IMG/VR virus record: IMGVR_UViG_3300038415_000014
Span: 32,001-96,000 of that record
Length of the DNA stretch: 64,000 nt
Strand: one strand, 5' to 3'
Source of the DNA: a virus
Made by a program: the position numbers and the translations under genes. Each line of letters begins with the position of its first letter. Position 1 is the first letter of the stretch. The notes below the pieces were generated by a model, which was given only the letters and a program-made list of their open reading frames with translations, did not search any database and had not been told where the DNA came from. Shown here piece after piece: positions 1 to 40,568 of the stretch.

Positions 1-2795
1 TGCCTCCCCAAACCTCGCGCGGTTGAAAGTGCTCCAATCACCGTTGGGTCATCATTGAATAGCCTCATCCCAGCATAGCTAATGATGAAGCTGTCCCCTG
101 TCGCGGTATTGTAGGTTAGTGGTAGTGAAGTCTGCAGATTTAGAGTAGAGAAGATAGCACAGGTAAGCTGTCCACCTGCTATCGAGTAGTTGATGTACTC
201 GGTGTTGAAGAGGGTAGTGTTTGTGGCAACCCTCTCTTGAGACATCAGCATGAAGTTGATGCCCCGATGGAAGTTCCCTCCACTTGTAACCGGAATAATC
301 GGTACCTCTACAGCACCCCAACCTGGAACTAGATGGCGGGGTAGGAGAGCATATCTTGTGTGATCAAACAAAGCCAGCGGATCAGACCCACTTGGTGTCA
401 TGATGCTACCAGTGATGGGACTTGGAACGGGGAACTGTATTGCCTGGAACGGGGTAATGGCTACAGTTTTTGACCCAAGATCTGCATAGGATTCTGCTGT
501 TACTGGCAGAAGACTCTTGTAGGTGTCGCCCCTGAACTTGCTCCAGAGCGCTGTCCAAGCTGTACGAAGTTGGAAGGTATTAGCTTGACTGTACTCCACC
601 TGATGGAGTAGTTGAGCGTTAGGGTTGAGTAGTGCAATGTTATGAATGGAGTCAGGTCGCCTTGATAGCCCACGACCACTACCATATTGAATATGCGTAG
701 TAGCATATAGGTTCAATACATTTGCAGGGGATAGAGGAGAATAAGTACCCGCAACTAGAGTAATGACTAGGTTATCAGTTGGACTGGGATTTGGAGGAGT
801 TACAGTGAAATAGTGCTGTGGTAAAGATGTTGCTTGACCCTCAACGCGGATCTGAACCGCTCCAGTACCTTTCCGAATGACATATGGAGTCAGGGTGGCC
901 GCAGGAATAGTCGTGGATACCGTCAATACTGTGGTGGTTACCTGAATGATGGTGTACGACCCAGCAGCAATAGGAGAATCATTAACGGTTATGACAAGAG
1001 TATCCCCAATCTCAACTCCGCTAGCTACATAGTCGTTGGTAGCGTCAATGAACTGGTCGGTACCTGAAGAAGTACCTGTCCCTGAGGCTGGCTGGTCATT
1101 GAGGAATCTGATCTGGTCAGCATCAGATACTGAGACTCCGGTCTTGAACTGATCTACCGGGATACTGAGTTGATCCCCTATAGTCCAAATTGCTGTGGTA
1201 GCTTGAGCTACAATGTTTGCATTCACATGCAAACCCCAAGGTTGTACAACCGCAACTGGGAAAGTTGGTGAGGGTCCTGACCAAGTTGTTGGCTTGAAGA
1301 TTACCTCTACGGGTTGTTGAACCGCCGCATCCGAGAAGATCATGCGAATGTGGTCAGGCCCATCAAGCTGAGTGACCCCCAAACTGATTGGTGGGGTCAA
1401 GCTGATCTTGTCTTCGTAGAGAAGATAAATCCCACGCGGGTCAGTTCCGGTTCTCTTCCAGTTGGCTCGTAGTTGCCCCTTGAGCAACTTGTCTAAGTTC
1501 GACCGAAGAGTGCTGTGGTAGTTGAAACCAGCTGGGTTGACTGCATGCCTAAGATCTAGAACGTCAGTCCCAGTGATCTGGTCTGAGTACAGTCCGTCGG
1601 GTCGAGTAGAGACAACCGTGATGGTTGCCCCAGCCTTATGAACAGCGGCCGCTGTACCATTAGCCCCCCTACCAGTAGTCGGGGTGATAGTAAGTATGGT
1701 ACCAGAAATACCAGAATAAGTGATAAGTTCTTCGTCGATCTTAATCGTCACCGACGACGCTGGGGTCAACGGAAGAGGGATATTTGAGGATGAGACCAGA
1801 GTTGCACTGAAAGAAGATGCACTAAGATCAGCGGCGAGAGTTGGTACCGTTGAGAATGTAAGAGTCCCAGTTCGGTCTACCGCGGTTGGATTGCGGTTGA
1901 ACCCACCATTCAGGTTCTGAGATGGCTCGCCTGCCCACAAGATGGCATTGCGACGGAAGACAATACAGATCGGGATTGCGTAGACATAACCATCCACTGT
2001 CCCAAGAACGTTCTGAGTCCCGTCTCCAGCCCTCCAGAGACCGGGGTCGCCCAGGGTCTCACGCATGTTGGCGAAGGTGTACCCGCCGACTGATGGAGGG
2101 GTTGCCTGTGCGCCTTGGGCCTTGACCACTGTTGGATCGAAGCCGTCAGGGTTGGTACTCAGATTGATGAGCCCCTTGACTACTCGAATGCGGTACTGTA
2201 GCTGTACACGCTCGGTGGTCTCTTCCCCGATAGCTGGGTCGAGGATATCATCGGGGAGGTAGCTAAACCCACCTTCGACATTGCCTAACTTAAAAATTGC
2301 GGACCCATTCGGCTTGTTGATGGTCGAGGGGTATGGAGCAATACGAGCTTTCCAGACTTCGAGGAACACGAAATCCGCTCGGGCGTCCCCCGCCGATCCT
2401 GGAGGAGGTTCGAGGGTAACCTTATTCCAAGTGTCAGTATCATCAGGGCTTCCTGGGGGGTCCCCTGTTTGAGTCCCCGCAACAGGAACTAACCAACCAT
2501 TGACGACCGCCCACATGATGGACTGCTTATCGCCGGAGCGCTGCCTGCCAAACTTGAACCAATTAGACCAAGTTGGGTCGGTTTGATAGTCCTTCGATGG
2601 GTTGATGTCGTTCCCGAACCAACCAGATGGGGTTCCAAGGAGAGACCTCTGGCGATCAAACCCAGCTGCGAGGTCACCAACGAGGTTCCACTCGGAGTCG
2701 AGTGGGCAGAGACCCGCTTGCCAGATTACACTCAGAAATTGAGTGGTCGCTGGATCAAGAACTCTGCTAACGCCTTCTCCTAGGTTATCAGTCAT
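1..2795 (-). CDS. Large tail/baseplate-associated virion protein, over 930 aa, runs off the left edge (absent from ORF track)
   Basis: Manual translation from ATG 2795 (overlaps upstream TGA): MTDNLGEGVSRVLDPATTQFLSVIWQAGLCPLDSEWN..., which resembles DUF4815/DUF6519-type N-termini. Later RPDGLYSDQITGTDVLDLRH. Frame was open at every stretch checked, down to position 3. Confidence 0.8.
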   Translation of the reverse strand, partial: MTDNLGEGVSRVLDPATTQFLSVIWQAGLCPLDSEWNLVGDLAAGFDRQRSLLGTPSGWFGNDINPSKDYQTDPTWSNWFKFGRQRSGDKQSIMWAVVNGWLVPVAGTQTGDPPGSPDDTDTWNKVTLEPPPGSAGDARADFVFLEVWKARIAPYPSTINKPNGSAIFKLGNVEGGFSYLPDDILDPAIGEETTERVQLQYRIRVVKGLINLSTNPDGFDPTVVKAQGAQATPPSVGGYTFANMRETLGDPGLWRAGDGTQNVLGTVDGYVYAIPICIVFRRNAILWAGEPSQNLNGGFNRNPTAVDRTGTLTFSTVPTLAADLSASSFSATLVSSSNIPLPLTPASSVTIKIDEELITYSGISGTILTITPTTGRGANGTAAAVHKAGATITVVSTRPDGLYSDQITGTDVLDLRHAVNPAGFNYHSTLRSNLDKLLKGQLRANWKRTGTDPRGIYLLYEDKISLTPPISLGVTQLDGPDHIRMIFSDAAVQQPVEVIFKPTTWSGPSPTFPVAVVQPWGLHVNANIVAQATTAIWTIGDQLSIPVDQFKTGVSVSDADQIRFLNDQPASGTGTSSGTDQFIDATNDYVASGVEIGDTLVITVNDSPIAAGSYTIIQVTTTVLTVSTTIPAATLTPYVIRKGTGAVQIRVEGQATSLPQHYFTVTPPNPSPTDNLVITLVAGTYSPLSPANVLNLYATTHIQYGSGRGLSRRPDSIHNIALLNPNAQLLHQVEYSQANTFQLRTAWTALWSKFRGDTYKSLLPVTAESYADLGSKTVAITPFQAIQFPVPSPITGSIMTPSGSDPLALFDHTRYALLPRHLVPGWGAVEVPIIPVTSGGNFHRGINFMLMSQERVATNTTLFNTEYINYSIAGGQLTCAIFSTLNLQTSLPLTYNTATGDSFIISYAGMRLFNDDPTVIGALSTARGLGR

Positions 2796-3708
2796 TTGTG
2801 GTCTCCATACAGATCTGCTTCTGCATGGAAGACCTGAAAGAAGGAATACCGACTTTCTTTCGGTAGGTGCACACATTGACAGGTGAGGTACTAAATCTAG
2901 TTGCTACCTCACGATCTGTTAGTTTTCCTGCGAACTTATGCCATGGTCTTATTGCTGGAGTTAGTACCCTACGAGTGGGAGCCCTCACTGAGGTTTGAAC
3001 CTCACCAGAACTGTTTCGCTCCCATACCATAGGGATCTCACTTATACCAGTACGTAGAGCCCCTTTTGCTTGAACCTGAGTTCTCTCTCGATGACAGTTT
3101 GCGCAGACTACCTCACATTTAGCCACTTCAGCAAGAATGGCCTTACAAGACTTCATCTGAGAAACAGATCCAACTTTAACACCACGTACATGGTCAAAAT
3201 CCATCTGACAGTAATGGAATGACCTCCCACAATCAGCACATGGCTTATCCTTGAGCTGAAGGATAAGTTCTCTCCTACTATCTATAACCTTTGGTGGTCT
3301 CCAAGTCCTCATACGATGACAGCGCACACAAACCACATCACATTTAGCTATTTCGCCTAAGATCCTAGCCCAAGGAGCTGTAGTCTTGTTCAGAAGATGA
3401 TTGATCTCATTTTCCTTGCAAGTAGGGTCTCGATGATCAAAATCCATGACATAGGGTGGGTAGGATAGACCGCAATCCTTACATGGAACACTCTTTAACC
3501 TGTCTACCGCTATATGCCGCTCAGCCTTCTTACGACGACAGATCTCAACATTCTTACGTCGATAGTGCTTCCGATTGAACTCTCTGTAGGCTTGAAAATC
3601 AGCCTTCTTCAAGGAATAGCGCTCCCTACCGTAGGCTCGCTCACACTCTCGACACTGGCGATGACCCTTTCGGAAATCACCTGGCCTACTGCACTTAGAA
3701 CAGATCAC
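2788..3708 (-). CDS. Free-standing HNH-type endonuclease with two tandem HNH domains
   Basis: Two copies of CxxC...MDFDH...KC(D/E)VVCxxCHRxRT; N-terminal CxxC...CxxC; C-terminal HTH-like segment; GTG start. Confidence 0.8.
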   Translation of the reverse strand: MICSKCSRPGDFRKGHRQCRECERAYGRERYSLKKADFQAYREFNRKHYRRKNVEICRRKKAERHIAVDRLKSVPCKDCGLSYPPYVMDFDHRDPTCKENEINHLLNKTTAPWARILGEIAKCDVVCVRCHRMRTWRPPKVIDSRRELILQLKDKPCADCGRSFHYCQMDFDHVRGVKVGSVSQMKSCKAILAEVAKCEVVCANCHRERTQVQAKGALRTGISEIPMVWERNSSGEVQTSVRAPTRRVLTPAIRPWHKFAGKLTDREVATRFSTSPVNVCTYRKKVGIPSFRSSMQKQICMETTND

Positions 3709-7400: not shown

Positions 7401-8332
7401 TTGATCCACGAATAATCAATCGAGATACTAGAACCAGGCGCCGGAGGGGTTGCAAGAACAATCTGACCCAGTAGCCCTACCACATGATCAACAGCAACAG
7501 GGGTGCTATTAACTCGCACTACTACATCTGATGGGCTATCAGCGATGAACCCAGTGTTGGGGTTGATGATTGCCCAATAGTTAGTGGCGACATTATCAGT
7601 TGGATCGGAGGTGGGTGCTCTGAAACTAGCTTGAACCCTGGCTCGGGTTGGGTTGATGACTGCTAGGATCTTGTAATCACCACCATTTACCGAGTCTACC
7701 AGCACGTTCGAGGCTTTGAGCCTCAGGTACAAACCAACGTGATTTGAACTCAAGCTTGCGCCCGTGAGTACCACATCACTAGTAGTGACGTTTCCGAAGA
7801 ATCTTGTTGGGGTCGTCTGAACCGACCATTGGTTGCCTGTCTGTACGACAGCTTCAGGTTTTACTATCGGACCCTTATTCGTAAAGAGGGACCGATCCGT
7901 ATAGGGGATCTGGGCCAGGAATTGTGCTGTGTTCCCACTAAGCATCAGCGGGTCGAGATCACTAGCATGCACCCCAGTTACTATCACCGTGTAGGTACCA
8001 GCTATTACTCCAGACACATGCAGTGCTACAACCGTTGCATTGACCGTGAACACTTCAAGAACTGTTACAGCAGAGGGGCCAGTGACGGAGTAAGAAGCTG
8101 GGTCGAGGAGAACCGAATCGATCATCAAAGGCTTGTTGAAAGTGACTAGTAGAATGCTACTGCTAAGAAGGAACTCTGCAGAGGCTACTGAAAACCCAGA
8201 GGATATTGAATTAGCGATCAGGGCAGAAGTCCCATTGAACGTTATCGCTAGGTCAACAGCTGCGCTACCAGCCCCCAGTAGGATATTTCCTGGCTGGCTG
8301 TTAGAAGTTCCGAGTATTCCTGTAAAGGCCAT
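4409..8332 (-). CDS. 1307-aa virion protein with about three ConA/LamG-like beta-sandwich repeats, candidate receptor-binding protein
   Basis: Three LP(E/Q)x...PW...G starts and repeated FxW...HxYR...(F/L)Y(V/I)DG ends; N-terminal Ig-like segment. Confidence 0.6.
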   Translation of the reverse strand: MAFTGILGTSNSQPGNILLGAGSAAVDLAITFNGTSALIANSISSGFSVASAEFLLSSSILLVTFNKPLMIDSVLLDPASYSVTGPSAVTVLEVFTVNATVVALHVSGVIAGTYTVIVTGVHASDLDPLMLSGNTAQFLAQIPYTDRSLFTNKGPIVKPEAVVQTGNQWSVQTTPTRFFGNVTTSDVVLTGASLSSNHVGLYLRLKASNVLVDSVNGGDYKILAVINPTRARVQASFRAPTSDPTDNVATNYWAIINPNTGFIADSPSDVVVRVNSTPVAVDHVVGLLGQIVLATPPAPGSSISIDYSWINDPAVEFRRLNSLEFVSNRWNRSTGVTGERVFPYRNAIQSTNGALSRIPIDDIRAPQPQPLLREVFYRAYERAYTSLSNDPTSLLLNTPKNRVAFPPLSRQISQVSVAYDANTLPESDPTTPWDRKGTGTATVSGGLLTITSNTIGPFPEGQPFYWSRGIDLTFPHAYATTWRLKITATTPDGVFTGVCTGWSDSIRAVILGYLLDGSTRKIGFLLRGNGDDPSKISGWTTFDFDWSTIHSYRLFRDTSGTVNFYVDGEVVPSLSISEAQLPFLEELNDSFNEIQNIFFGSLSRGATSTSVWDFVHYLVLPTNPQQSIPSSFVSYTPTVLPENATNPWTPVGYHGNETLVGGVLVLDSTSATDLATSEEVGLVGGDFKGFTRIEPLLSASTNTVLDFEVTLRTLTHGITPNAIMAAVDDGNRLVQVCFFPTTPQPKVSYPGRSLPQEATPRPWTSLGGQPAVMVGRILQIQDSSLTDGRVFAIEDLESSSSLNRIFYVSIDYYFEFKCEVVSSTPDPTDYFCGATVDVYDGTKTIGVMLRRDPVNPQVAFHSDGLVLQAFAFNWADGKTHIYRVAKNTAADLVILYIDGVLIGSFAYSGFTTVSPVSVPTFSFGSSTASSGQALSVIDWHYVNGWRAQPVSGVSHYVGIWKGVDQSSLLGYYLPLKAKGQARTSGNQLTDLLADFIGAGVQIGDDLIIDFGDNRGVYSVFTVSTNTITFVNLLPQPGHTVVEYRIPAQFEWAMNHTYQLLRDPAGFIALFVDSSTTPIIQVEYNNTTLPSSSVGLPNQFNRGLPSITWGAFDPTNLSQSAWPFLQYGITRAPIEVKAVPPHQVSNQRNVMSSPEHLLGRVAHNHTQYSSASTGVPYLWEAYVNNPNVHAFTKLNDGTPLVPSTQTYDVRKKTIPPFAPYSATGFGGAAMGVDGFGFGPLGNVPSLKVRFIIPDGVLYNRLEVIEKTSGKSDLLSAFSDDQVSMVFDPPVVSLSITFSGDSGMEANEG

Positions 8333-8339
8333 CAGATCC

Positions 8340-9152
8340 TCAGAAGTCCCCAGTGTGGTCTTCGCCTATGACAAGTTGATTGACCTTACGACCCATTCGG
8401 TCTTGGTCTAGTAACCCATGCTCATACACCCTGAAGTCCTCGTAGTAGTAACTCGATAGGCTGCTTCTTGATGCATCCAAGATCCCCAACCCACCATTCG
8501 GGTTGTATTGATCCGTGAATATGTACCTGATCTTGAACAGAGTGTGCGCGGGACGTATGATGTTCAGAATTAGACGAACATTAGCCTCAAGAGTGAAGGT
8601 ATCCGTGGGGAACCCAGTCGCTGTATCCGTGACATCTATTTGGAACCCAAACTCATCAGAGATATCGAGCCCTGAGTTGGGCATCCGAGCTTGTAGGAAA
8701 TCCTCAGTGAAGGTCAGGGCTCCTGTAAAGAAGAGCTGAACTCCCTGGATCATTGCCTTTGGAATCGAACCCTCGAAGTAGATCCCAATCACACTGAGGA
8801 GAAATTGTCTGAACTGCTCATCATCATAGTCAGTCGTCGGCAACTGGCCATTCATGAAGACCATGTAGCCAATCAAAGTGTATAGGAAATCAGTGCGAGT
8901 TGTCTCAAAGTCTATGTCGAATTTGACATCTTCGAGTGCTAGCTCCAACCGAGACAACTCCAGAGCCACCGCTTTAATTTCGACTGAATATGCTGGGCCT
9001 TCGATTGTGCTGATATAATTACTCGGGAGTAAGTCAAGTAAGTTCTTGAATATGCTCTGAGTCCTCTGGATCAGGCGTAAGTTGTATTCCTTCCCAGATT
9101 GGGGTATCGTGTGATTCAATCGATCTGGGTCGTTTACGAATCGATCAGCCAT
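8340..9152 (-). CDS. Baseplate wedge protein, P2 gpI-like
   Basis: DFLYTLIG...DDEQFRQFL...EGSIP...LNIIRPAHT pattern; lies downstream of the gpJ-like gene. Confidence 0.65.
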   Translation of the reverse strand: MADRFVNDPDRLNHTIPQSGKEYNLRLIQRTQSIFKNLLDLLPSNYISTIEGPAYSVEIKAVALELSRLELALEDVKFDIDFETTRTDFLYTLIGYMVFMNGQLPTTDYDDEQFRQFLLSVIGIYFEGSIPKAMIQGVQLFFTGALTFTEDFLQARMPNSGLDISDEFGFQIDVTDTATGFPTDTFTLEANVRLILNIIRPAHTLFKIRYIFTDQYNPNGGLGILDASRSSLSSYYYEDFRVYEHGLLDQDRMGRKVNQLVIGEDHTGDF

Positions 9153-10002
9153 TGGCCCTTCTCTCCCTGAGTCTAAGGATAATCAAAGAACGAGATATGC
9201 CCAACTCCTTTGCTACTTGTTCTTGAGTCTTACTGCTCAGGAGGTCGAGAATTTGATCTGTTGTAACGCGACTTGGCTTTACAGGCGCCAACGGGTTCCC
9301 GAGTCTTCTTGCTAACTCAACCCTTCTATTTACAAGTCTCACAGAAATTCCCAACTCATCAGCAACCTGAGCTCTAGGTATTCCACTATTTATCCTACTT
9401 AGAATGTAGTCAGTTGAAAGGTCGTGTCTGTAATTAGGGTGCTTGGACCCAGCGAATAAATCCTTACGAGATTCGCTCATTCTTTTCCTAGCCTCAAGTG
9501 ACGGGCGAATCCCCTTATGGCATTCGATGTACTTGAGGATAGTCTCTTGAGAGTGCTTGTAACCCTTGAGCTTAGATGGTCTTCCCTTATTGGCTCTAGA
9601 TATCTTGGAGCGAGATTCTGCACTCACTGCATGACCAGTCATCTTAACACGCATTTTTAGCTTAGTCTCAGGTGATACCTTGTACCCACTTCTACCCCCA
9701 CCACCTTCAACGATATTCGTGAGCAAAGCCCCCTGTTCTCTAGATTCTTGAATCAAACGAACCTCAAGTCGATCAAGCTCCTCGCGAGTATAAGCCTCAC
9801 CTAACTGTCGAACACTAGGTTCCAAGTTTAGACTCAGCAAGATCCGTAACCATCGTGTGACGTATCTTGAATCTTTGAGGTTGTGGGGGTTAAGGTGCGC
9901 CTGAAGTCGAACCTTTAGCATTCTGACGGTTTGACCAATATACCTAAGAGCCCCATCTCTCGGGTCGTATAGTCCGTAAACTATGCCGAACCTGTCAGCC
10001 AT
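9145..10002 (-). CDS. GIY-YIG homing endonuclease with NUMOD3 repeats and two HTH motifs
   Basis: VYGLYDPR...RYIGQT..L..RL..H, LDRLE, LTN..EGG; SPETKLKM/SAESRSKIS/SLEARKRMS repeats; two xQVAxELGIS motifs. Confidence 0.9.
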   Translation of the reverse strand: MADRFGIVYGLYDPRDGALRYIGQTVRMLKVRLQAHLNPHNLKDSRYVTRWLRILLSLNLEPSVRQLGEAYTREELDRLEVRLIQESREQGALLTNIVEGGGGRSGYKVSPETKLKMRVKMTGHAVSAESRSKISRANKGRPSKLKGYKHSQETILKYIECHKGIRPSLEARKRMSESRKDLFAGSKHPNYRHDLSTDYILSRINSGIPRAQVADELGISVRLVNRRVELARRLGNPLAPVKPSRVTTDQILDLLSSKTQEQVAKELGISRSLIILRLRERRANG

Positions 10003-13465: not shown

Positions 13466-14602
13466 TTATTGAATCAATGAGTAGTTTTGCAAGTTGCTAA
13501 CGATCTCTTGTTGCTGTGTCGCCCCTAGCAGGTTATTTGGGTATGGGAGCCGCAACCCACGTGTCAATTGAATTGGTTTCAGGGATCTATTTGCAACGGT
13601 AACTGTGATGAATAGAACGGTAGGGTCATTCTGACTCTGCTCCAAGGTCACCCCTTGCAGCTGGAATGGGAACTCCTCATCAGAAACAGCTTGACCTACG
13701 GTCTCTTCCTGCTGCTTCTTGATGGATTGCCATCGCCCAAAGGCAGTGTAGATGTCAGATGTGATCCTATTCTGAAGGATTCCGCCTACTACAAGCTTCT
13801 CTCCAATTTGGTCTATGATTCTAGTACCGTACCAAGTATGAAATGAGTTAGTCCCTGCAACAGTGTAGATGATCTTCTGCACCTCTTGGATCAGAAGGAT
13901 CTCATCTCTGACTTGGATTACCTCACCAGTAACCCCATAGACCCAATCGTTTTCTATGCCAAGACCGCCGCACCTACGACACTCCTCACGGATTGTCGTG
14001 TAGTTAACCTCTAGATAGTTGAGATCGGCCCTGAGGGGCTCATCGAATACAATCTGACGAAGTGGGCGATCTGATAGAGTCCCGGGCTTGTTGACTAATG
14101 CCCATCCAGGGAACACGTTCTTGCCACTAAAGTGGCGGTTGACTGGGATTCCAAGTAGAGTAGCGAGGGTACTGACAGAATCAATGAAGACAGTGGCAGT
14201 TGGGCCCAGCAGATTGCTCCGAAAGAGCATCTTGTTGTTGTCAGTATAGAATTGGACCCCATTCACTCTTGTATTGATCAACAAGGCTAGCTGATCTGGT
14301 TGGATCCGATACCCACTTGGGATCCTGACATCTTGCCAAGGATCATTACCAACTTTTAGCCTCAGCCTGTCATTGACCCCAGTAGTGAGGGTGAACGGGC
14401 CTGAGCGAGATCCACCTGACTGCGCGGGAGTTTGAACCCCATAGGACGGGACCTCTGCAACCCCATTGGCTCGAACTATCACCGAGCTGAGGGATGCTAT
14501 CGGCCGCAAAGGGGTGGCTATCTGCCTGTCCCCTTGCATGAGCAGGTATTCCTCAGCTACCAGGTGAGTACACACTTGTTCTAGCTGACGATCATAACTC
14601 AT
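13466..14602 (-). CDS. gp25-like sheath initiator with about 200-aa N-terminal extension
   Basis: C-terminal LLIQEVQKIIYTVAGTNSFHTWYGTRI...DPTVLFITVTV; CRRC motif; position before the gpJ-like gene. Confidence 0.75.
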   Translation of the reverse strand: MSYDRQLEQVCTHLVAEEYLLMQGDRQIATPLRPIASLSSVIVRANGVAEVPSYGVQTPAQSGGSRSGPFTLTTGVNDRLRLKVGNDPWQDVRIPSGYRIQPDQLALLINTRVNGVQFYTDNNKMLFRSNLLGPTATVFIDSVSTLATLLGIPVNRHFSGKNVFPGWALVNKPGTLSDRPLRQIVFDEPLRADLNYLEVNYTTIREECRRCGGLGIENDWVYGVTGEVIQVRDEILLIQEVQKIIYTVAGTNSFHTWYGTRIIDQIGEKLVVGGILQNRITSDIYTAFGRWQSIKKQQEETVGQAVSDEEFPFQLQGVTLEQSQNDPTVLFITVTVANRSLKPIQLTRGLRLPYPNNLLGATQQQEIVSNLQNYSLIQ

Positions 14603-15348
14603 GAGCTCGACCCTCCACCTGAAGCGGTATACCCATCCGAGCCACGCTCAATCGCTGGACCATCTTGTGGAGCGCGGGTCCCACCCTGGTCGTACGACGA
14701 CATAGGAGCATAAGTGTACTTACCAAATGGGTCTTGCCCCTTGTCATCAGCGATTGCACGGTAACTAGGATCAATGAACAACTGGTTTACCAATGCTATG
14801 AGATTCTCAAGTGAGCCGTCGACATCGACTGACTTTTTGATGGTCTTGAGTTCGTTGATCTCGTCTTGTAGCTGGTCTGAGTAGTCGATCGCTCGTCGAA
14901 TCTTGCGCTCAAGTTTTTCGAGTCTGTCTAGGTTCCCCTCCGTCCAAGACCTCATCGAACGAACCGCATTCCCCGAGTCACCATCGGATAACCCTGGAAG
15001 CGGTAAGGGCTCACCGTTGGAAAGTATCTTAGAGGTAGCTGTCTCGGAACCCTTCAAGTAGTATACTGGCTGATTGAAGGACCTGACTTGAAGATCGTAG
15101 AATGGGTCCCCCCCTAACACTTCATACGCAGCTACCAATTTGCCTATAAAAGTTATGATTCCAGGTGACCCAGTCGATAGAGAGGTAGGCCTACCACCAG
15201 AGTCGTAATCAAATTTAAGGAATCCAATCCTTTGCTGCTCAATAGTGAGATGCTTGATCCTAGAATCAATATAAACAAGCTGGCTTCTAACATAAGCTAC
15301 GAAGCGAGTGAACTGTGACTTGTTAAATGTACCCAAGAAGTCCATCAT
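14599..15348 (-). CDS. Helical/coiled-coil hypothetical virion protein
   Basis: Start moved to MMDFLGTF, just past the upstream stop at 15353; heptad segment NLDRLEKLERKIRRAIDYSDQLQDEINEL. Confidence 0.7.
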   Translation of the reverse strand: MMDFLGTFNKSQFTRFVAYVRSQLVYIDSRIKHLTIEQQRIGFLKFDYDSGGRPTSLSTGSPGIITFIGKLVAAYEVLGGDPFYDLQVRSFNQPVYYLKGSETATSKILSNGEPLPLPGLSDGDSGNAVRSMRSWTEGNLDRLEKLERKIRRAIDYSDQLQDEINELKTIKKSVDVDGSLENLIALVNQLFIDPSYRAIADDKGQDPFGKYTYAPMSSYDQGGTRAPQDGPAIERGSDGYTASGGGSSS

Positions 15349-15352
15349 GGTT

Positions 15353-16228
15353 CTAGCCAGCCTTCTTCTTGAGGGTATCGGAGTACTTGAGTAAGTAATT
15401 GACTGCTGAATAAAGGAGATCGGTGGAGTCCCTGAACATCCCAATACCCGCATTACACTTACTACACAAGAAACCACGCGGTTCGTTGGTTACATGGTCA
15501 TGGTCGACTACGGCCCCTCCCTGCCCTACTCGAAGGGGTTCACCGCAAATCTCACAAGGCTTTGCATAGTCAATTACGGTACCGTACTTGTTCTTAGATC
15601 TGTAGCAACTTCTGCATAACCCTGAATTACTAACCCTAGGCTTATCAGGGTGACACACTGAAGGTGGTTGCTCCTCAAAGCGCTTTCTACCGTAGCATGA
15701 CTTACAGACCCCAGACCCAATGACATGTTCAGGTTTATTTGGGTGACACTTCGATGGGTTATGCTTACTCTCTTTTTTAGGAAAGCATGAGAAGCAAATA
15801 CCAGAACCGACTATGTACTCAGGCCTACCAGGATGACACTTTGAAGGGCTTCTTGTCATCCTAACTTGTTCTGAGCGGCACGACTTACACAAACCTGAAC
15901 CGACTATGTACTCAGGTTTGTCAGGGTGGCACTTTGATGGGGAGTGCTTACTTATTCGTTGTGAGTCGCAGCAGGACTTGCATAACCCAGAGCCAACCAC
16001 AAATTCAGGCTTATCGGGGTGACACTTTGATGGCGAGTGGGTAGCTACTCTTTTAGAATCATAGCAAGCAGAACACAAACCAGAACCAATCACAATCTCT
16101 GGCTTATCTGGGTGGCACTTAGATGGAGAATGCTTACTTACTAGCAAGGCATGATAGCAAGAATTACACAAGCCACTAGCCTTCTCAGGTCTATCCGGAT
16201 GGCAAGTAGCCTTCTTTTCCGATTTCAT
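15353..16228 (-). CDS. Endonuclease VII-family nuclease with seven N-terminal CH...CxxC repeats
   Basis: C-terminal CEICG...VDHDH.T...RGFLCSKCNAGIG; seven CHPxxP...SGxCxxC units. Confidence 0.85.
   Translation of the reverse strand: MKSEKKATCHPDRPEKASGLCNSCYHALLVSKHSPSKCHPDKPEIVIGSGLCSACYDSKRVATHSPSKCHPDKPEFVVGSGLCKSCCDSQRISKHSPSKCHPDKPEYIVGSGLCKSCRSEQVRMTRSPSKCHPGRPEYIVGSGICFSCFPKKESKHNPSKCHPNKPEHVIGSGVCKSCYGRKRFEEQPPSVCHPDKPRVSNSGLCRSCYRSKNKYGTVIDYAKPCEICGEPLRVGQGGAVVDHDHVTNEPRGFLCSKCNAGIGMFRDSTDLLYSAVNYLLKYSDTLKKKAG
15605..16204 (-). repeat. Seven degenerate coding tandem repeats of 29-31 aa (about 93 nt)
   Basis: Consensus CHPDKPEyivGSGLCksC...skhsPSK, visible in both protein and DNA. 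Confidence 0.95.
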
Positions 16229-16255
16229 TTGAATCTCTACACCTTACTAGGTCAA

Positions 16256-18400
16256 TCAAAAGATCAAACTGAAGGCTGACACGAAAGAGCTGACATCAGT
16301 CCCTGCATATGCCAGGGCAACTCCAGCCGAGTACCCACCAGGACCTGAGGGGGGCTTCGTACCTCCAGCACCATCGATGGCTTTGATCCAACCTGGGATA
16401 CCCCCAGTCGTAGTAGGTACATTCAAGAAGTAGAAACCAGCTGTGAAACTATCCAAGAAGTTCAAGATCTCAATCAGGTACTTGATGAATCGTTCCAGGA
16501 CATCAATCTTGCGGGATACTGCATCAATGTAGGCTTTGATCTCGTCGATAGCTGACCTGAAGGCATCGGCGAGAGCATCAATGCGATTGAGTAAGTCATA
16601 GATGAATTGACCACTCCATGGGATGATGTCTCTTAGCAAACTGATGGATACCCAGTCAGGTGGCGTACCACCAAGCGTGAACGACTTGATGAAGTTGACT
16701 GCATCCAATAGATTCAGCCTAACATTCACATTTGTGTAAGCTGCTTCAGTTGTAGCATAGACAGCTGGGTAACAAACCTGGTCACCGGGGAAACCCTCAG
16801 GGATATTGTTGTAGGCCGTTACCATGGCCTCAATGGTTGTGTTGTGGCCATTGAAGTTACCATCTGAGGGGATTGGTCTCGGGATAGCCCCTTGGAACAA
16901 GTCCCGAAGAGGTATCAGCATGGCGCTATTCTCTAGGAGGGAAGATCCAACGGTCTGGGCCAACTGCGCTGATTGAAGCTTCACTGACAGGTAGTTCTGA
17001 GTAACATCCGGATAGTCACCGGTAGTTGGGTCCGCCGAGATGTTCCCTCCAAAGGATAGAGGCTCGATTTGAGATAGGGCGCCACCGATGTTGGTGAGAG
17101 ATCCACAGCCTACCTGGCTCGCGGGGGTACCATTGATGGGGAGCCCATTCTTGTCGAACTGTGAGTCCTTAGCCAACGGCTGTTGAAACCCAAGGGCGAA
17201 AGCCATCCTGAAGGTGTCTTCGAGGACCGTAATCACATCAAAGTCGGGCGGAATATTAGGAAGCCGACAAGTGAGAATTGGACTTGGGCGACCCATGACC
17301 ACAGGGTCGTTTGGGTCAGAGGAGGGCCACCTCTGAATCATCTCTTTGGTAGTGGCATCCACCTCGGGGGCAGGGAAGGTGATTTCATTCTCAGAGTCGA
17401 CATCGAGAGCCCCACTGAAGGCTCGAATGCGGTAGTAGTAGGTTGTGTCCTTGTTGACAGCGCTATCTATGTACCGGAACTTACCGAGTTGAAGCAGGGA
17501 GAATATCGAGGTCGCTGAAGTCGGGTCAAGCACGAAGTACTTCTGGAACTGACGGAAGACGTCCCCTTGCTCGTCCCTTACGACTACTTTGCGACTGATG
17601 GCCTTGCCAGTCTTATCCTCGAAGTTGGTCTGCGAGGTTGTGGTCATCGGGGTTGGACCCCCAGAGAGACTCGTTCTCTCAATGAGCCAACTCTTAGGGA
17701 TCAGTTCACTGGATACACTGGCGACCAAGTCGTTGAAGCCTGGGTCAGGCGGGTACTGATTGGTCGCCAGAGTCCACTCAAGGGCAAACCCCTTCAAAGT
17801 TGCTCCGAAGACTGATGCCACCTGCAGAATCGGGTCAATACTTGGGGTAGCATTGGTCCCGCTAGAAGTCCCGGGCTTGGTCCCCGCCGGAAAGATTCGA
17901 GCATTGGCCGGAGCAACATACTTGGCTGCAGTGATCTCTTTACCGAAGAATCGGAGGAGAATCTTCATCAGGCGCAACAAGGAATAGATGTTCGTAGCAT
18001 CAGCTACAATGAGTACGAACCCACTCTGCATACTCCCCGCGAGAGGCTGAGGTCGATAGGGGTCCTTAGCGTCAAACAGGGAGGCCTTGAAGCGCCCAGT
18101 GAACGCTTGATATCCTCCCTTATAGAGATCGAAGTTTGGGTCCCTCGTCGGATTCGGTATATCGAAGTACCCGTACAACCCTGTCCGCTTCAAGCTCTCG
18201 AATAGCTGCTGAAGGACAGCTAAGAGGGCCGTTACAATAGCTCGGATTGGGTTCCCAAAATCGATGAGGAACAAGCTGATCGTATTGAGAAGAGCCTTGA
18301 TGACCTCCAAGAAGGTAACGAGAACTTCAAGGGTTGAACGAACACTTTCGAGTTCATCCTTACCCGGGATCTTGATTTCTAATGCCTTCCAATCAGACAT
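16256..18400 (-). CDS. 714-aa putative virion protein with amphipathic helical termini and a central FN3-like segment
   Basis: YIDSAVNKDTTYYYRIRAF FN3-like motif; long helices at both ends; baseplate gene context. Confidence 0.6.
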   Translation of the reverse strand: MSDWKALEIKIPGKDELESVRSTLEVLVTFLEVIKALLNTISLFLIDFGNPIRAIVTALLAVLQQLFESLKRTGLYGYFDIPNPTRDPNFDLYKGGYQAFTGRFKASLFDAKDPYRPQPLAGSMQSGFVLIVADATNIYSLLRLMKILLRFFGKEITAAKYVAPANARIFPAGTKPGTSSGTNATPSIDPILQVASVFGATLKGFALEWTLATNQYPPDPGFNDLVASVSSELIPKSWLIERTSLSGGPTPMTTTSQTNFEDKTGKAISRKVVVRDEQGDVFRQFQKYFVLDPTSATSIFSLLQLGKFRYIDSAVNKDTTYYYRIRAFSGALDVDSENEITFPAPEVDATTKEMIQRWPSSDPNDPVVMGRPSPILTCRLPNIPPDFDVITVLEDTFRMAFALGFQQPLAKDSQFDKNGLPINGTPASQVGCGSLTNIGGALSQIEPLSFGGNISADPTTGDYPDVTQNYLSVKLQSAQLAQTVGSSLLENSAMLIPLRDLFQGAIPRPIPSDGNFNGHNTTIEAMVTAYNNIPEGFPGDQVCYPAVYATTEAAYTNVNVRLNLLDAVNFIKSFTLGGTPPDWVSISLLRDIIPWSGQFIYDLLNRIDALADAFRSAIDEIKAYIDAVSRKIDVLERFIKYLIEILNFLDSFTAGFYFLNVPTTTGGIPGWIKAIDGAGGTKPPSGPGGYSAGVALAYAGTDVSSFVSAFSLIF

Positions 18401-30170: not shown

Positions 30171-32285
30171 TTAGGTACCACCTGTTGAGGGGTTACGAGC
30201 ATCGAAGCTTGCAGCTTCAGTAGCATTGAGGGAGGCGTAGACCGAAGGATCTAGCCCTGGTGGTAGAGCTACTTGACCCCCTCCAGTGTTTGAAACCAAA
30301 CTCTGATTGGAAGTTGTCGGTAGTGGCTGCACATTCTGCGCCGACTTGAGGACATTGAAGTCAGTTTCTGTAGGCCCATCCAGAAGGAATGTAGCCCTTA
30401 CAGTGAATTCAATGTTGTATTCCAACGAGTATGGGGTAGTGTCCGCCTCGGTGACATTGAAACTATCAAACGATCCAATGTACAAGGTGTTGTCATAGTA
30501 GATGTAGATCGACCCAACGAGTGACAATCTTGCCAGTAGGTTGTTCTTGATGGTTGTATCGTTGAAGGTGTTCACGAACAACCCACCGTTGTTCCTATAA
30601 AGTAGGTACAAGCTCAAGAAGTTCTGGTAACTAGCTGAGTACTGACGAGCCACGCGCGTTAGACCAGGGCCACCACCTAGATTGTTTGGGTCCTTGCTAG
30701 GTTGTGAGTCGATGGCAAAGAAGGCCGCGATCTTGCCCGAGAGGCTCATCTTGTCTTGTTGCTCACCCCAGTGTTCAATGATAGGGCCTTCTCGCGTGAA
30801 GTTCCCATCCGAGACAACCCTCTCAGAGCTGATCTTGAAGCTAGCTGGGTTGACTAGGAGACGCAACGGAGGTGTAGTCCGCATGATGTCCAGGGCCAGA
30901 GCAGTCATAGCCGCTTCAGCTTTCTGGGCATTCTGATATTGTTGACCGAGCTCGGTCTTGTTCAGGTCAACCCTATCGGCGGTCTTGTCGTCATTCTTCC
31001 GAGCTGCACTCGCGTTAGGTGAACCGTCGGTGTTCCAATCCCCATTGGAACCATCTTGAGGTTGGACCGCCTGGGCTAGCAATGGACAGTTAGCCCCATA
31101 GACAGAGCCAGAGTTGAACCGGTATTTATTCTGTGGAGTTAGACCCCTTCCACCATTGGTGCTAGACCCTGGAGACGTCATATCCATGTACTGAAACTGA
31201 GTCTGATTAAAGGCGCAACAATCAGGAGCACCTTTTGGGATGCCACTAGCATCACTTAGACTTACCCCTGTACCTTTCATACCATTCGCAACCTGGGACA
31301 AGTTAGCAGGGAACCCATCGTAATAACCCCTAACAGAAGCGGTGAAATACCCTGCTTGAGCCAAAGAGGTGATATACCCAAGGGCGTCCCCACTCTGAGC
31401 TGCAGTTACTGTATTTGGGCTATTAGTTACATGCCTGATGAAGGCCTGTGCTCCAGCTTGTGTGTTATCAAACGCCTTGTAGTAGTTGCCATCGGATGCC
31501 AAGTAACTAGGAGTGTTTGCTGGTGGGGTATTCCCATAATTGACCATATTCCCGAAGTTATTACTGTATGAGTTACCACTAGTCTCCCTGAGACACTGAG
31601 CAGTATAGAACTGAATCTCAGTTGGGGTAGGCTCAGTACCAGTCACAGCTCGATAAGCATCAGTCATAGTGCTGTAGAGTTGGGGTACAGAGAAGTGCGT
31701 CAGTCGGGCATCAGTGCTCTTAGGGTCTATAGGCGCTCCTGCTGGTGACTTGATACCCCCATTCAAGGCCCCAGATCCTTGATCTATTGAGTATCCAGCT
31801 GAAGTAATATATGGCCCACCTGCTGAACCACCAGGCCCCAAAGTCCCTCCAGCTGCTGTAGACTTGGGACCATTGAAGTCCAACTCCTGAGTTGGATACC
31901 CCTGAGTCGCGCCTATCGAGGCCGACCTGTCCAAAGTCTTTCCAGTGATATTCGCTGTAGGAGGGATGAGCCCAACCACGAATAGCTTTGGATTAGCTTT
32001 GGTCTGAGCTATCGGGATGAAGTCTTCGTTGAGATCCGAACTTAGCTCCAACGACGAGTGGAACCCCAAGAGCTGGTAGATGGCTGGACCGTAATAGTCA
32101 GCCGCTTGCTCTATCTGATTGATGACCCGAGACTGACCCCCTTTGAGTTGTGGGGGCAGTGGATTGGCATTTGAGCTGCCACTACTGACAGGGGCAAATG
32201 TCTTCCCCTGAGCCGTCGTAGGATCAGTCGGGGTGTTCCCCCAAAAGTCCAAGTAGCCCTGTGGATTTGCTTCATTCCCTGCCAT
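30171..32285 (-). CDS. GH73-like peptidoglycan hydrolase fused to a tube-initiator (gp48/gp54-like) domain
   Basis: AQCLRETSG...NNFG...YKAF...LAQAGYFT resembles FlgJ/GH73; C-terminal LLVNPASF...EHWGEQ...SGK is paralogous to 32296-33018. Confidence 0.7.
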   Translation of the reverse strand: MAGNEANPQGYLDFWGNTPTDPTTAQGKTFAPVSSGSSNANPLPPQLKGGQSRVINQIEQAADYYGPAIYQLLGFHSSLELSSDLNEDFIPIAQTKANPKLFVVGLIPPTANITGKTLDRSASIGATQGYPTQELDFNGPKSTAAGGTLGPGGSAGGPYITSAGYSIDQGSGALNGGIKSPAGAPIDPKSTDARLTHFSVPQLYSTMTDAYRAVTGTEPTPTEIQFYTAQCLRETSGNSYSNNFGNMVNYGNTPPANTPSYLASDGNYYKAFDNTQAGAQAFIRHVTNSPNTVTAAQSGDALGYITSLAQAGYFTASVRGYYDGFPANLSQVANGMKGTGVSLSDASGIPKGAPDCCAFNQTQFQYMDMTSPGSSTNGGRGLTPQNKYRFNSGSVYGANCPLLAQAVQPQDGSNGDWNTDGSPNASAARKNDDKTADRVDLNKTELGQQYQNAQKAEAAMTALALDIMRTTPPLRLLVNPASFKISSERVVSDGNFTREGPIIEHWGEQQDKMSLSGKIAAFFAIDSQPSKDPNNLGGGPGLTRVARQYSASYQNFLSLYLLYRNNGGLFVNTFNDTTIKNNLLARLSLVGSIYIYYDNTLYIGSFDSFNVTEADTTPYSLEYNIEFTVRATFLLDGPTETDFNVLKSAQNVQPLPTTSNQSLVSNTGGGQVALPPGLDPSVYASLNATEAASFDARNPSTGGT

Positions 32286-39839: not shown

Positions 39840-40568
39840 TCAAACTCCAATTCCATTTAGGTTAGACTGAATCCCTTGGATCACAAACTTGAAGAACGAA
39901 GGGTCCTTTGCCCCTTTCTTGGAGTTGCATGAACTACAAGAGGGGACGACATTCTCTTTTGAGTGGGGTCCACCCTTAGAGATTGGGATAACATGATCCA
40001 TGGTCAGCTTAGCGTCAGACCTTCCACAGTAGGCGCAACTATGGTTGAACTCTGATAGAACGGACAACCATTCTTCAGTTGTAAGAGTATTCGTAACTTT
40101 AGCTAGATCAGCTCGCCTCTTCTGCCACCAACCAGGATTTCTGAGCCTCCAAGATTTGACCTTCTCAGTCACCGCTTCTGGGTTCTTACTCTCCCAACGT
40201 GAGCAGATAACCCTCCACTCTTCTGAGTGACTTTTAACCCAACTCAAGAAGTTCTTGTAGGCTCTCTCCCTGTTGGCGTAATACCAAGCTGACGCTCGGT
40301 CTCTAGCAGCCTGTTTCTGATCTTCTGTTCTAGAAGTAACCGCCCAAGACTCCCTTTTCTTACGATTCAAGTCAGTTCTACGAGGGGTTGCATACAGTTT
40401 CTGCAAGTCAGCGCAGCACTTCCTACATGCCGCCTTCTTTCCAAACTTACCTCTTGCTTGATCACCAAATTCCCCGAGCATCTTGAGGTCTCCGCACTCT
40501 GAACATACCTTTCCACCCCCAAGCGGTACTTGAGTCTCGGCAGCTTGGAGAATGGTTCTCTGGAGCAT
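39840..40568 (-). CDS. Free-standing HNH endonuclease
   Basis: CAYCG...TMDHVIPISKGG...NVVPSCSSCNSKK; TAATG coupling to the upstream gene. Confidence 0.9.
   Translation of the reverse strand: MLQRTILQAAETQVPLGGGKVCSECGDLKMLGEFGDQARGKFGKKAACRKCCADLQKLYATPRRTDLNRKKRESWAVTSRTEDQKQAARDRASAWYYANRERAYKNFLSWVKSHSEEWRVICSRWESKNPEAVTEKVKSWRLRNPGWWQKRRADLAKVTNTLTTEEWLSVLSEFNHSCAYCGRSDAKLTMDHVIPISKGGPHSKENVVPSCSSCNSKKGAKDPSFFKFVIQGIQSNLNGIGV

Follow-up and report, generated by a model that had tools for sequence, protein, structure and literature searches.

A predicted free-standing homing endonuclease with seven putative zinc modules in a huge uncultured phage

What does a tandem series of small cysteine/histidine modules do at the front of a phage nuclease? 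The question is raised by one gene in a 64,000-nucleotide (nt) stretch of viral DNA, referred to here as the window (IMG/VR virus record IMGVR_UViG_3300038415_000014, positions 32,001 to 96,000). The source record, 183,533 bases long with a CheckV completeness of 38%, is a fragment of a very large (huge) uncultured phage. The gene occupies 15353..16228 on the - strand, which is exactly one open reading frame (ORF) of 291 amino acids (aa). An earlier description made from the letters of this DNA, referred to here as the original prediction, proposed a natural zinc-finger-array nuclease in which seven units on an Endonuclease VII domain would each read DNA. Its architecture is borne out by pattern matching and by the Pfam Endonuclease_7 profile (PF02945): an array of Cys/His modules stands on an intact Endonuclease VII domain. 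With a probability of about 0.7, the gene encodes a homing endonuclease of the free-standing type, a member of the DHHRN (Endonuclease VII-motif, His-Me finger) family, carried as a 907-nt insert between two conserved structural genes of the tail, with the zinc array as its putative DNA-binding arm. The original prediction did not recognise this identity. This assignment of the whole gene draws on the ORF list, the PF02945 match, PHROG endonuclease VII families and the variable occupancy of its slot in relatives.

A His-Me nuclease domain behind seven Cys/His units

The catalytic domain (aa 222-280; 15389..15565, - strand) matches PF02945 with an E-value of 3.1e-14 and 53.1 bits, against a cut-off of 23.6, and several PHROG 'endonuclease VII' families match the 291-aa protein. 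The Endonuclease VII or 'DHHRN' motif has been defined as CX2-4C ... D-H-x-H ... R ... CX2C-N (PMC6083498). The domain holds C225, C228, D242, H243, H245, R251, C255, C258 and N259, each invariant across 22 aligned proteins, as well as D244. Alignments to T4 Endonuclease VII and Hpy99I complement the profile match, the residue check and the invariant columns; Hpy99I (PDB 3fc3) is the best solved relative, with E 5.6e-7 by sequence and E 8.4e-4 by Foldseek on the AlphaFold model. An exhaustive VIA fold search aligned residues 217-291 only, to HNH domains (McrA at Z 4.0, the HNH domains of IscB and Cas9 at Z 3.0-3.6), and fold searches with the full model returned matches to the C-terminal domain only.

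In front of this domain lie seven units that match a regular expression, with first residues at 9, 38, 69, 100, 131, 161 and 192; units 1-6 are 29, 31, 31, 31, 30 and 31 aa long. Each takes the form C-H-P-x-[RK]-P, 4-6 residues, S-G-[LIV]-C-x-x-C and a variable stretch, and a linker ending in S/P-x-P-S-K closes units 1-5. The C, the H, the P at position 3, the P at position 6, the S-G before [LIV]C and the CxxC are invariant in all seven units, and the spacing from H to CxxC is 10, 12, 12, 12, 12, 12 and 11 residues in units 1-7. Among 20,000 shuffles of the protein, 19,482 contained no match to the motif, 510 contained one, 8 contained two and none contained three or more, against the seven observed; the seven-fold motif is not a product of chance. 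Across all six frames of the whole window, the motif occurs at these seven places only. The regular expression and the shuffles confirm the claim of seven 29-31-aa units with invariant C, H, P, P, SG and CxxC. The accompanying formula, CH-x10/12-CxxC, describes units 1-6 correctly and fails for unit 7, where the spacing is x11. The six helix strings quoted at that time are correct, and the seventh, YRSKNK, was missing from the list.

All seven units lie on the - strand. Unit 1 (aa 9-37; 16118..16204) is CH-x10-CxxC followed by YHALLVSKH, with a model helix at residues 22-32. The CH-x12-CxxC form is shared by units 2 (aa 38-68; 16025..16117; model helix 53-63), 3 (aa 69-99; 15932..16024; helix 84-94), 4 (aa 100-130; 15839..15931; helix 115-125), 5 (aa 131-160; 15749..15838; helix 149-153) and 6 (aa 161-191; 15656..15748; helix 176-186). 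Unit 3 has an extra Cys in place of the usual Tyr after CxxC, unit 4 by eye has no counterpart in the six-unit copy of a relative (L018, below), and the helix of unit 5 is short. Unit 7 (aa 192-221; 15566..15655), of the form CH-x11-CxxC, has a model helix at 206-215 that runs into the nuclease domain. In the AlphaFold2 model, built on a 22-sequence alignment (mean predicted local distance difference test, pLDDT, 84.4; predicted template modelling score 0.49), short beta bridges lie around the C-H and before the CxxC of every unit, and a helix begins at the CxxC. Read from this secondary structure, a knuckle would supply two ligands and the helix's first turn the other two, a treble-clef-type layout.

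The repeat exists at the protein level only; Tandem Repeats Finder detected no tandem array in the DNA, and a DNA-level repeat was rejected. Among units 2, 3, 4 and 6, the amino-acid identity of the scaffold is 72-89% and the identity of third codon positions 22-61%. The third positions are near saturation; the unit duplications are therefore old, and purifying selection maintains the scaffold. For the same reason, a recent duplication of units with diversifying selection on the helix finds no support.

The unit also occurs in other proteins. A word-indexed search returned 46 relatives, 44 of them with PF02945, and an exhaustive search returned 52,662 proteins at E <=0.001, only 3 of which reach E <=1e-30 and most of which share the nuclease domain alone. 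The CH-type unit is present in 97 of 186 fetched proteins, in one to six copies (none in 89 proteins, one in 19, two in 30, three in 27, four in 12, five in 7 and six in 2), and the highest count observed is the seven of the window's array. In the closest homologs, 46-56% identical, there are four or five. The first ligand pair is C-H in most units, CxH in P0010, P0012 and P0015, CxxH in the single unit of Mycobacterium phage Bongo gp77 (annotated 'endonuclease VII'), and CxxC in P0029 and in one unit of P0049's otherwise CH-type array. In every aligned unit of 22 homologs, C, H, C and C are the sole ligand-type residues that are invariant. This invariance and the interchange of ligand pairs are the best evidence for one zinc per unit on these four residues, and each unit is predicted to hold one CHCC zinc. 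The unit precedes two tandem Endonuclease VII domains in P0010 and P0053 and HNH-like domains in P0034 and P0040, and five units occur in P0134 with no recognised nuclease; the unit is thus portable.

The claim that the repeat belongs to no named family stands, in that no Pfam or NCBIfam model matches it. Pfam profiles, including zf-C2H2, zf-A20 and DZR_2, gave no match to the query array even at E 10, and NCBIfam profiles gave none to the 291-aa protein. With units of the form CH-x10-12-CxxC and no zf-C2H2 match at this threshold, the array is not a C2H2 zinc-finger array. Cousin units match two families for which the query array has no such match: zf-A20 (PF01754) matches those of P0134 at 25.1 bits (cut-off 21.6), and DZR_2 (PF18912) matches the Cys4 units of P0029 at 32.7 bits (cut-off 27). 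The idea that the unit is a degenerate copy of the His-Me core was rejected, hhalign giving a probability of 7.4% with just five columns, 'LCxxC', aligned. With the array alone (aa 1-220), tblastn against 50,697 cultured-phage records found nothing at E 1e-3, a search in which the low-complexity filter may hide matches, and the 6-kb region has no DNA match in cultured phages. Longer fused forms of the array were absent among 638 candidates of 511-2000 aa, which is weak evidence, and narrow peptide patterns recovered one confirmed locus in species-representative cellular genomes, with the nuclease domain only. In the ESM Atlas, aa 1-215 gave feature scores of 0.80 or less and structural template modelling scores all below 0.5, with DZR_2, Stc1 and Zf_WRKY19 as leads only.

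An insertion slot and its occupants

The slot that holds the gene is bounded by two conserved genes. At its left edge, upstream, lies a 714-aa structural-module gene (16256..18400, - strand), and at its right edge, downstream, a 249-aa gene (14599..15348, - strand, ATG at 15348), delimited from the ORF list and from relatives. Six collinear loci were compared at this slot, namely the window and L014-L018; four viral loci were retrieved through the 714-aa neighbour and one metagenome contig through the nuclease, and the proteins of the window were mapped onto them. The 714-aa protein is 72-83% identical in L014-L016 and L018 and 44% identical in L017.

In the window, the slot measures 907 nt and contains the intact seven-unit gene. 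L018 carries a six-unit copy (1627..2421, + strand) that is 49% identical, between flanks that are 83% and 81% identical; an in-frame stop falls directly after its first CxxC, at the position of the conserved Tyr, and several scaffold prolines are altered. The 206-nt slot of L015 retains a 58-aa deletion relic (8154..8330, + strand) in which the first C-H-P is fused to the half that follows DHDH, covering positions 45-81 only of the Pfam profile. The 625-nt slot of L014 holds a different Endonuclease VII gene of 210 aa (8121..8753, + strand), whose front end combines a segment resembling a helix-turn-helix (CENP-B_N at 19.6 bits, under the cut-off) with a CxxC...CxxC ribbon and lacks the array of CH units. 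The L014 nuclease is 37% identical to that of the window over 81 C-terminal residues only; here, at a single site, modules have been swapped on one type of nuclease. The slots of L016 (17 nt) and L017 (about 57 nt) are empty. This set of slots, intact, interrupted, reduced to a relic, replaced and empty, is what one would expect for a homing endonuclease gene of the free-standing type: it has its own ORF between conserved genes, is patchy among relatives and has decayed or replaced copies at the site. The comparison would also neatly capture the stages of the homing cycle among huge uncultured phages.

As a homing endonuclease, the protein would cut DNA with its C-terminal beta-beta-alpha-metal domain, which would contain one structural zinc and the catalytic D-H-x-H...N. 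The N-terminal 215 residues would form beads on a string, seven zinc modules of about 30 aa, in each of which one zinc would be held jointly by the Cys-His pair and by the CxxC that opens a short basic helix, giving eight zinc ions per chain. Lying along the DNA, the array would provide most of the binding energy and the choice of target for a long site, which is expected near the empty slot of gene-less relatives. In a mixed infection, the gene-less genome would be cut and then repaired from the gene-carrying genome, and the gene would be copied in.

A target-site search in the flanks of occupied and empty slots gave no clear diagnostic positions. The two carriers of the CH array, the window and L018, share identical runs of about 20 nt near both slot edges (16256..16375 and 15229..15348, - strand) where the other relatives differ. 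These runs may reflect co-conversion of the flanks with the gene, in a set of genomes too few to judge.

The junctions of the insert are tight. A 27-nt spacer (16229..16255, - strand), read from the junction sequence, separates the stop of the 714-aa gene from the nuclease ATG, and the nuclease gene ends 4 nt before the ATG of the 249-aa gene. A listed ORF at 14599..15477 (- strand) begins at a GTG (15477) and shares 125 nt with the nuclease gene; this start is probably an over-extension, since the proteins of relatives begin at ATG 15348, and the 249-aa form is the likely gene. The last codons of the nuclease's C-terminal tail (...KKAG, stop; 15353..15388, - strand) overlap a purine-rich AGAAGG, 13 nt upstream of the next ATG, which is a predicted ribosome-binding site of the 249-aa gene. 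The 17-nt empty slot of L016 (8128..8144) likewise contains AGAAGGCT, and the 9-nt string AAGAAGGCT lies near both ends of the nuclease ORF, at about 16196..16204 and 15359..15367 (- strand), with K-K-A codons at each end. The shared AAGAAGGCT and AGAAGGCT strings may belong to the ribosome-binding region of the downstream gene or may be microhomology involved in the gain and loss of inserts. The G+C content is 0.468 in the nuclease gene against 0.516 in the window, which, like the tight junctions and the lack of promoter- or terminator-like sites on its strand in a simple scan, is consistent with a mobile gene.

In the direction of transcription, the gene order is the 714-aa gene, the 291-aa nuclease, the 249-aa gene, a 378-aa gene and a 1151-aa baseplate-wedge-like gene. 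The large ORFs surrounding the nuclease gene are all on the - strand and include matches to baseplate-wedge and baseplate-hub/lysozyme proteins, with a helicase further on.

Other genes of homing type are found in the window. About 5 kb away, a second free-standing gene (9145..10002, - strand, 285 aa) combines GIY-YIG (21.8 bits, just below cut-off), NUMOD3 and helix-turn-helix matches with a PHROG 'homing endonuclease' match at E 2e-14. It is placed between the 1151-aa baseplate-wedge-like gene and a 270-aa gene, a junction that lacks the gene in L015, L016 and L017, another sign of mobile origin. A 242-aa HNH protein (39840..40568, - strand; Pfam HNH, E 1e-14) begins with a CxxC...CxxC segment, and a 306-aa protein (2788..3708, - strand) matches HNH PHROGs in two halves at E 4e-41, with no Pfam match at E 0.01. 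By these matches, the 64 kb would encode at least four nucleases of homing type.

Whether the array reads DNA

The case for DNA contact comes from the way the unit varies. Unit statistics were drawn from 320 units in 116 of 188 proteins, where about 12% of the regular-expression matches fall on the nuclease core in relatives of the DHCH type. Entropy is low in the scaffold columns (P 81%, G 79%, L 70%, Y after CxxC 72%) and 3.3-4.0 bits at the helix positions after CxxC; the 12 residues after CxxC contain a mean of 2.9 K/R against 1.1 D/E. Compared with eight close homologs over units 4-7, the query is 64.5% identical in the scaffold (365/566), 47.6% in the nuclease domain (240/504) and 21.9% in the helices (63/288). 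The charge of the window's array is likewise basic, with 38 K+R against 18 D+E. The original prediction of a variable, helix-like stretch after CxxC is upheld, as AlphaFold places a helix there, which is basic and varies far more than any other part. A rigid scaffold with a fast-evolving basic helix fits a DNA-contacting, specificity-determining surface, and on balance the array is predicted to be a DNA-binding arm. Phage homing enzymes are described as long strings of small modules that bind DNA and touch up to 30 base pairs (bp) (PMC3943268).

Several observations weigh against a homing enzyme with such an arm. The slot comparison covers six loci only, and the empty ones are the most diverged, with flank identities of 72% in L016 and 44% in L017. 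A three-unit sub-model (aa 96-191, pLDDT 81.1) has no clear structural match, including to DNA-reading fingers. Foldseek returned none for it at E <=0.001 (best E 1.4), the weak matches including GATA1 (E 3.8) and A20 ZF7 (E 8.1, root-mean-square deviation 2.7 over 30 columns), and VIA returned 2 of 48,161 chains at Z >=2, ZFAT ZF3-5 at 2.5 and Rabex-5 at 2.2. This lack of fold matches is no proof that the array has a new fold. The nearest Pfam family of the cousin units, in P0134, is zf-A20, a family known from protein-binding fingers. The helices, poorly conserved among close homologs, are by eye also very different in the same-slot copy of L018; this weighs against a shared target because one shared target would call for more conservation, and a surface free of constraint but biased in charge would fit this pattern too. 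Among characterised homing enzymes, I-TevI has a zinc finger that is a spacer and not a binder (PMC1865063).

In another reading, the protein is a homing-type nuclease whose array does not read sequence and acts instead as a non-specific electrostatic clamp on DNA, as a ruler or spacer, or as a protein-binding or dimerisation module, with a short specificity residing in the His-Me domain. Such an array would explain why the helices keep mainly a basic bias and diverge otherwise, why seven units in one genome correspond to six in the same slot of another, and why the cousin units of P0134 exceed the zf-A20 cut-off. Natural zinc-ribbon HNH nickases, with one or two zinc sites, have specificities of only 3-7 bp (Xu and Gupta, PMC3592412). 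Seven units selected for their scaffold, with near-random third positions, would nevertheless be a large investment for a spacer, and I-TevIII depends on its two zinc fingers to bind DNA (PMC1865063). The helix-turn-helix front end of the Endonuclease VII gene at the same slot in L014 suggests that the array fills the role of a DNA-binding domain, and a non-reading array is judged unlikely. In a stronger reading, the units are a true modular DNA-reading array, the hypervariable basic helix specifies a few bp per unit, and phages retarget the enzyme by gaining, losing and mutating units. This is improbable, and slightly more so is the strong form of the original prediction, a separable, portable recognition code in which each unit reads a few bp through its variable helix, with arrays that could be rebuilt like those of zinc-finger nucleases or transcription activator-like effector nucleases. 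The regularity of the 29-31-aa units, the contrast of rigid scaffold and hypervariable helix, the copy number of 1 to 7 among relatives and the joining of the unit to different nuclease domains all favour a code. Against it, the contact of the helices with DNA is itself a prediction from sequence, neither Foldseek nor VIA links the units to DNA-reading fingers, and the units are old duplicates with neither recent duplication nor clear diversifying selection in evidence. The phage homing enzymes that are known tolerate sequence variation and depend on context, and do not follow a code (PMC3943268).

It is very improbable that the gene is not selfish and serves the phage itself, as a Holliday-junction resolvase or packaging nuclease of the kind of T4 gp49 (Endonuclease VII). 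The Pfam family is the same, and the gene sits inside a structural block where a simple scan of its strand found no promoter- or terminator-like sites. It is, however, absent, replaced, truncated or interrupted in the five related loci, which argues against this function because an essential resolvase would be conserved. The alignment to T4 Endonuclease VII is limited to residues 22-70 of its 157 (E 0.14), and the T4-type C-terminal part is therefore absent here. An Endonuclease VII motif at the C-terminus marks an 'endonuclease clade', which comprises homing and restriction enzymes and is separate from the resolvases, whose motif is N-terminal (PMC6083498); the motif of the 291-aa protein is C-terminal, as in the endonuclease clade, a likeness of position drawn without a tree. 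The gene thus has neither the N-terminal motif, nor the T4-type C-terminal part, nor the conservation in relatives of a gp49-type junction resolvase.

Known relatives and implications

The free-standing homing endonuclease favoured here resembles several described systems. F-CphI of cyanophage S-PM2 is an Endonuclease VII-motif homing enzyme (PMC6083498), and its DHHRN family shares with the window's protein a C-terminal motif of CX2-4C, DHDH, R and CX2C-N and a phage gene of homing type. The window's gene differs in that it is free-standing and a 215-aa array of seven zinc modules precedes the nuclease; the N-terminus of F-CphI lies outside this comparison. I-TevIII of phage RB3 also joins a His-Me nuclease to a separate zinc-finger DNA-binding domain, the need for which was shown by mutation (PMC1865063). 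I-TevIII is intron-encoded and has an HNH motif and two CX2CX12-13HX3C fingers C-terminal to the nuclease, whereas the window's protein has seven CH-x10-12-CxxC units N-terminal to an Endonuclease VII domain. Bongo gp77 starts with one unit, CxxH-P-D-R-P ... G-L-C-x-x-C-Y, before its Endonuclease VII domain. The Cys-rich modules that stand before 'endonuclease VII' or HNH genes in cultured phages differ from the array in having one unit or another ligand pattern, and none is characterised.

Hpy99I, the best solved relative of the catalytic domain, likewise has more than one structural zinc site (PMC2699513). It is a restriction enzyme, dimeric and paired with a methylase, that contains a beta-barrel; a tandem array and a homing context are both absent. 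Engineered zinc-finger nucleases, in which C2H2 fingers are mounted on FokI, are alike in their tandem zinc modules of about 30 aa, each with a variable helix, and in their tethered nuclease. The window's units differ in their CHCC ligands with adjacent Cys and His, in the CxxC at the helix start and in having no zf-C2H2 match, and the nuclease is of the His-Me type and not FokI. No description of the CH...CxxC unit was found in the literature searched, which was judged largely from titles and the openings of abstracts and from which subscription journals were mostly absent; members may occur in the alignment and 313 sequences that supplement PMC6083498.

A free-standing phage homing endonuclease that combines a His-Me nuclease with zinc-containing DNA-binding modules is thus a kind already known, and zinc modules standing before His-Me nucleases of phages are an established design (PMC1865063, PMC3592412). 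What is new is the unnamed CH...CxxC unit with its adjacent Cys-His pair, the longest array seen (seven units), the contrast between scaffold and helix, and a documented insertion slot.

Phage homing endonucleases, with a small nuclease and loosely tethered DNA-binding modules, are a natural model for engineered nucleases. The module described here is very regular, with about 30 aa, one predicted zinc, a rigid scaffold and one hypervariable helix, and it occurs in 1-7 copies with several nuclease types; the literature searches turned up no biochemical study of it. If the helices do not set specificity, the gene is an ordinary selfish gene, one of several in this phage. If they do, the array would offer a compact new DNA-targeting scaffold and a tractable system in which to follow how selfish nucleases change their targets. 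Should the modular reading prove true, viruses would have their own natural equivalent of zinc-finger nucleases, its code learnable and its His-Me cutter compact, at about 75 aa.

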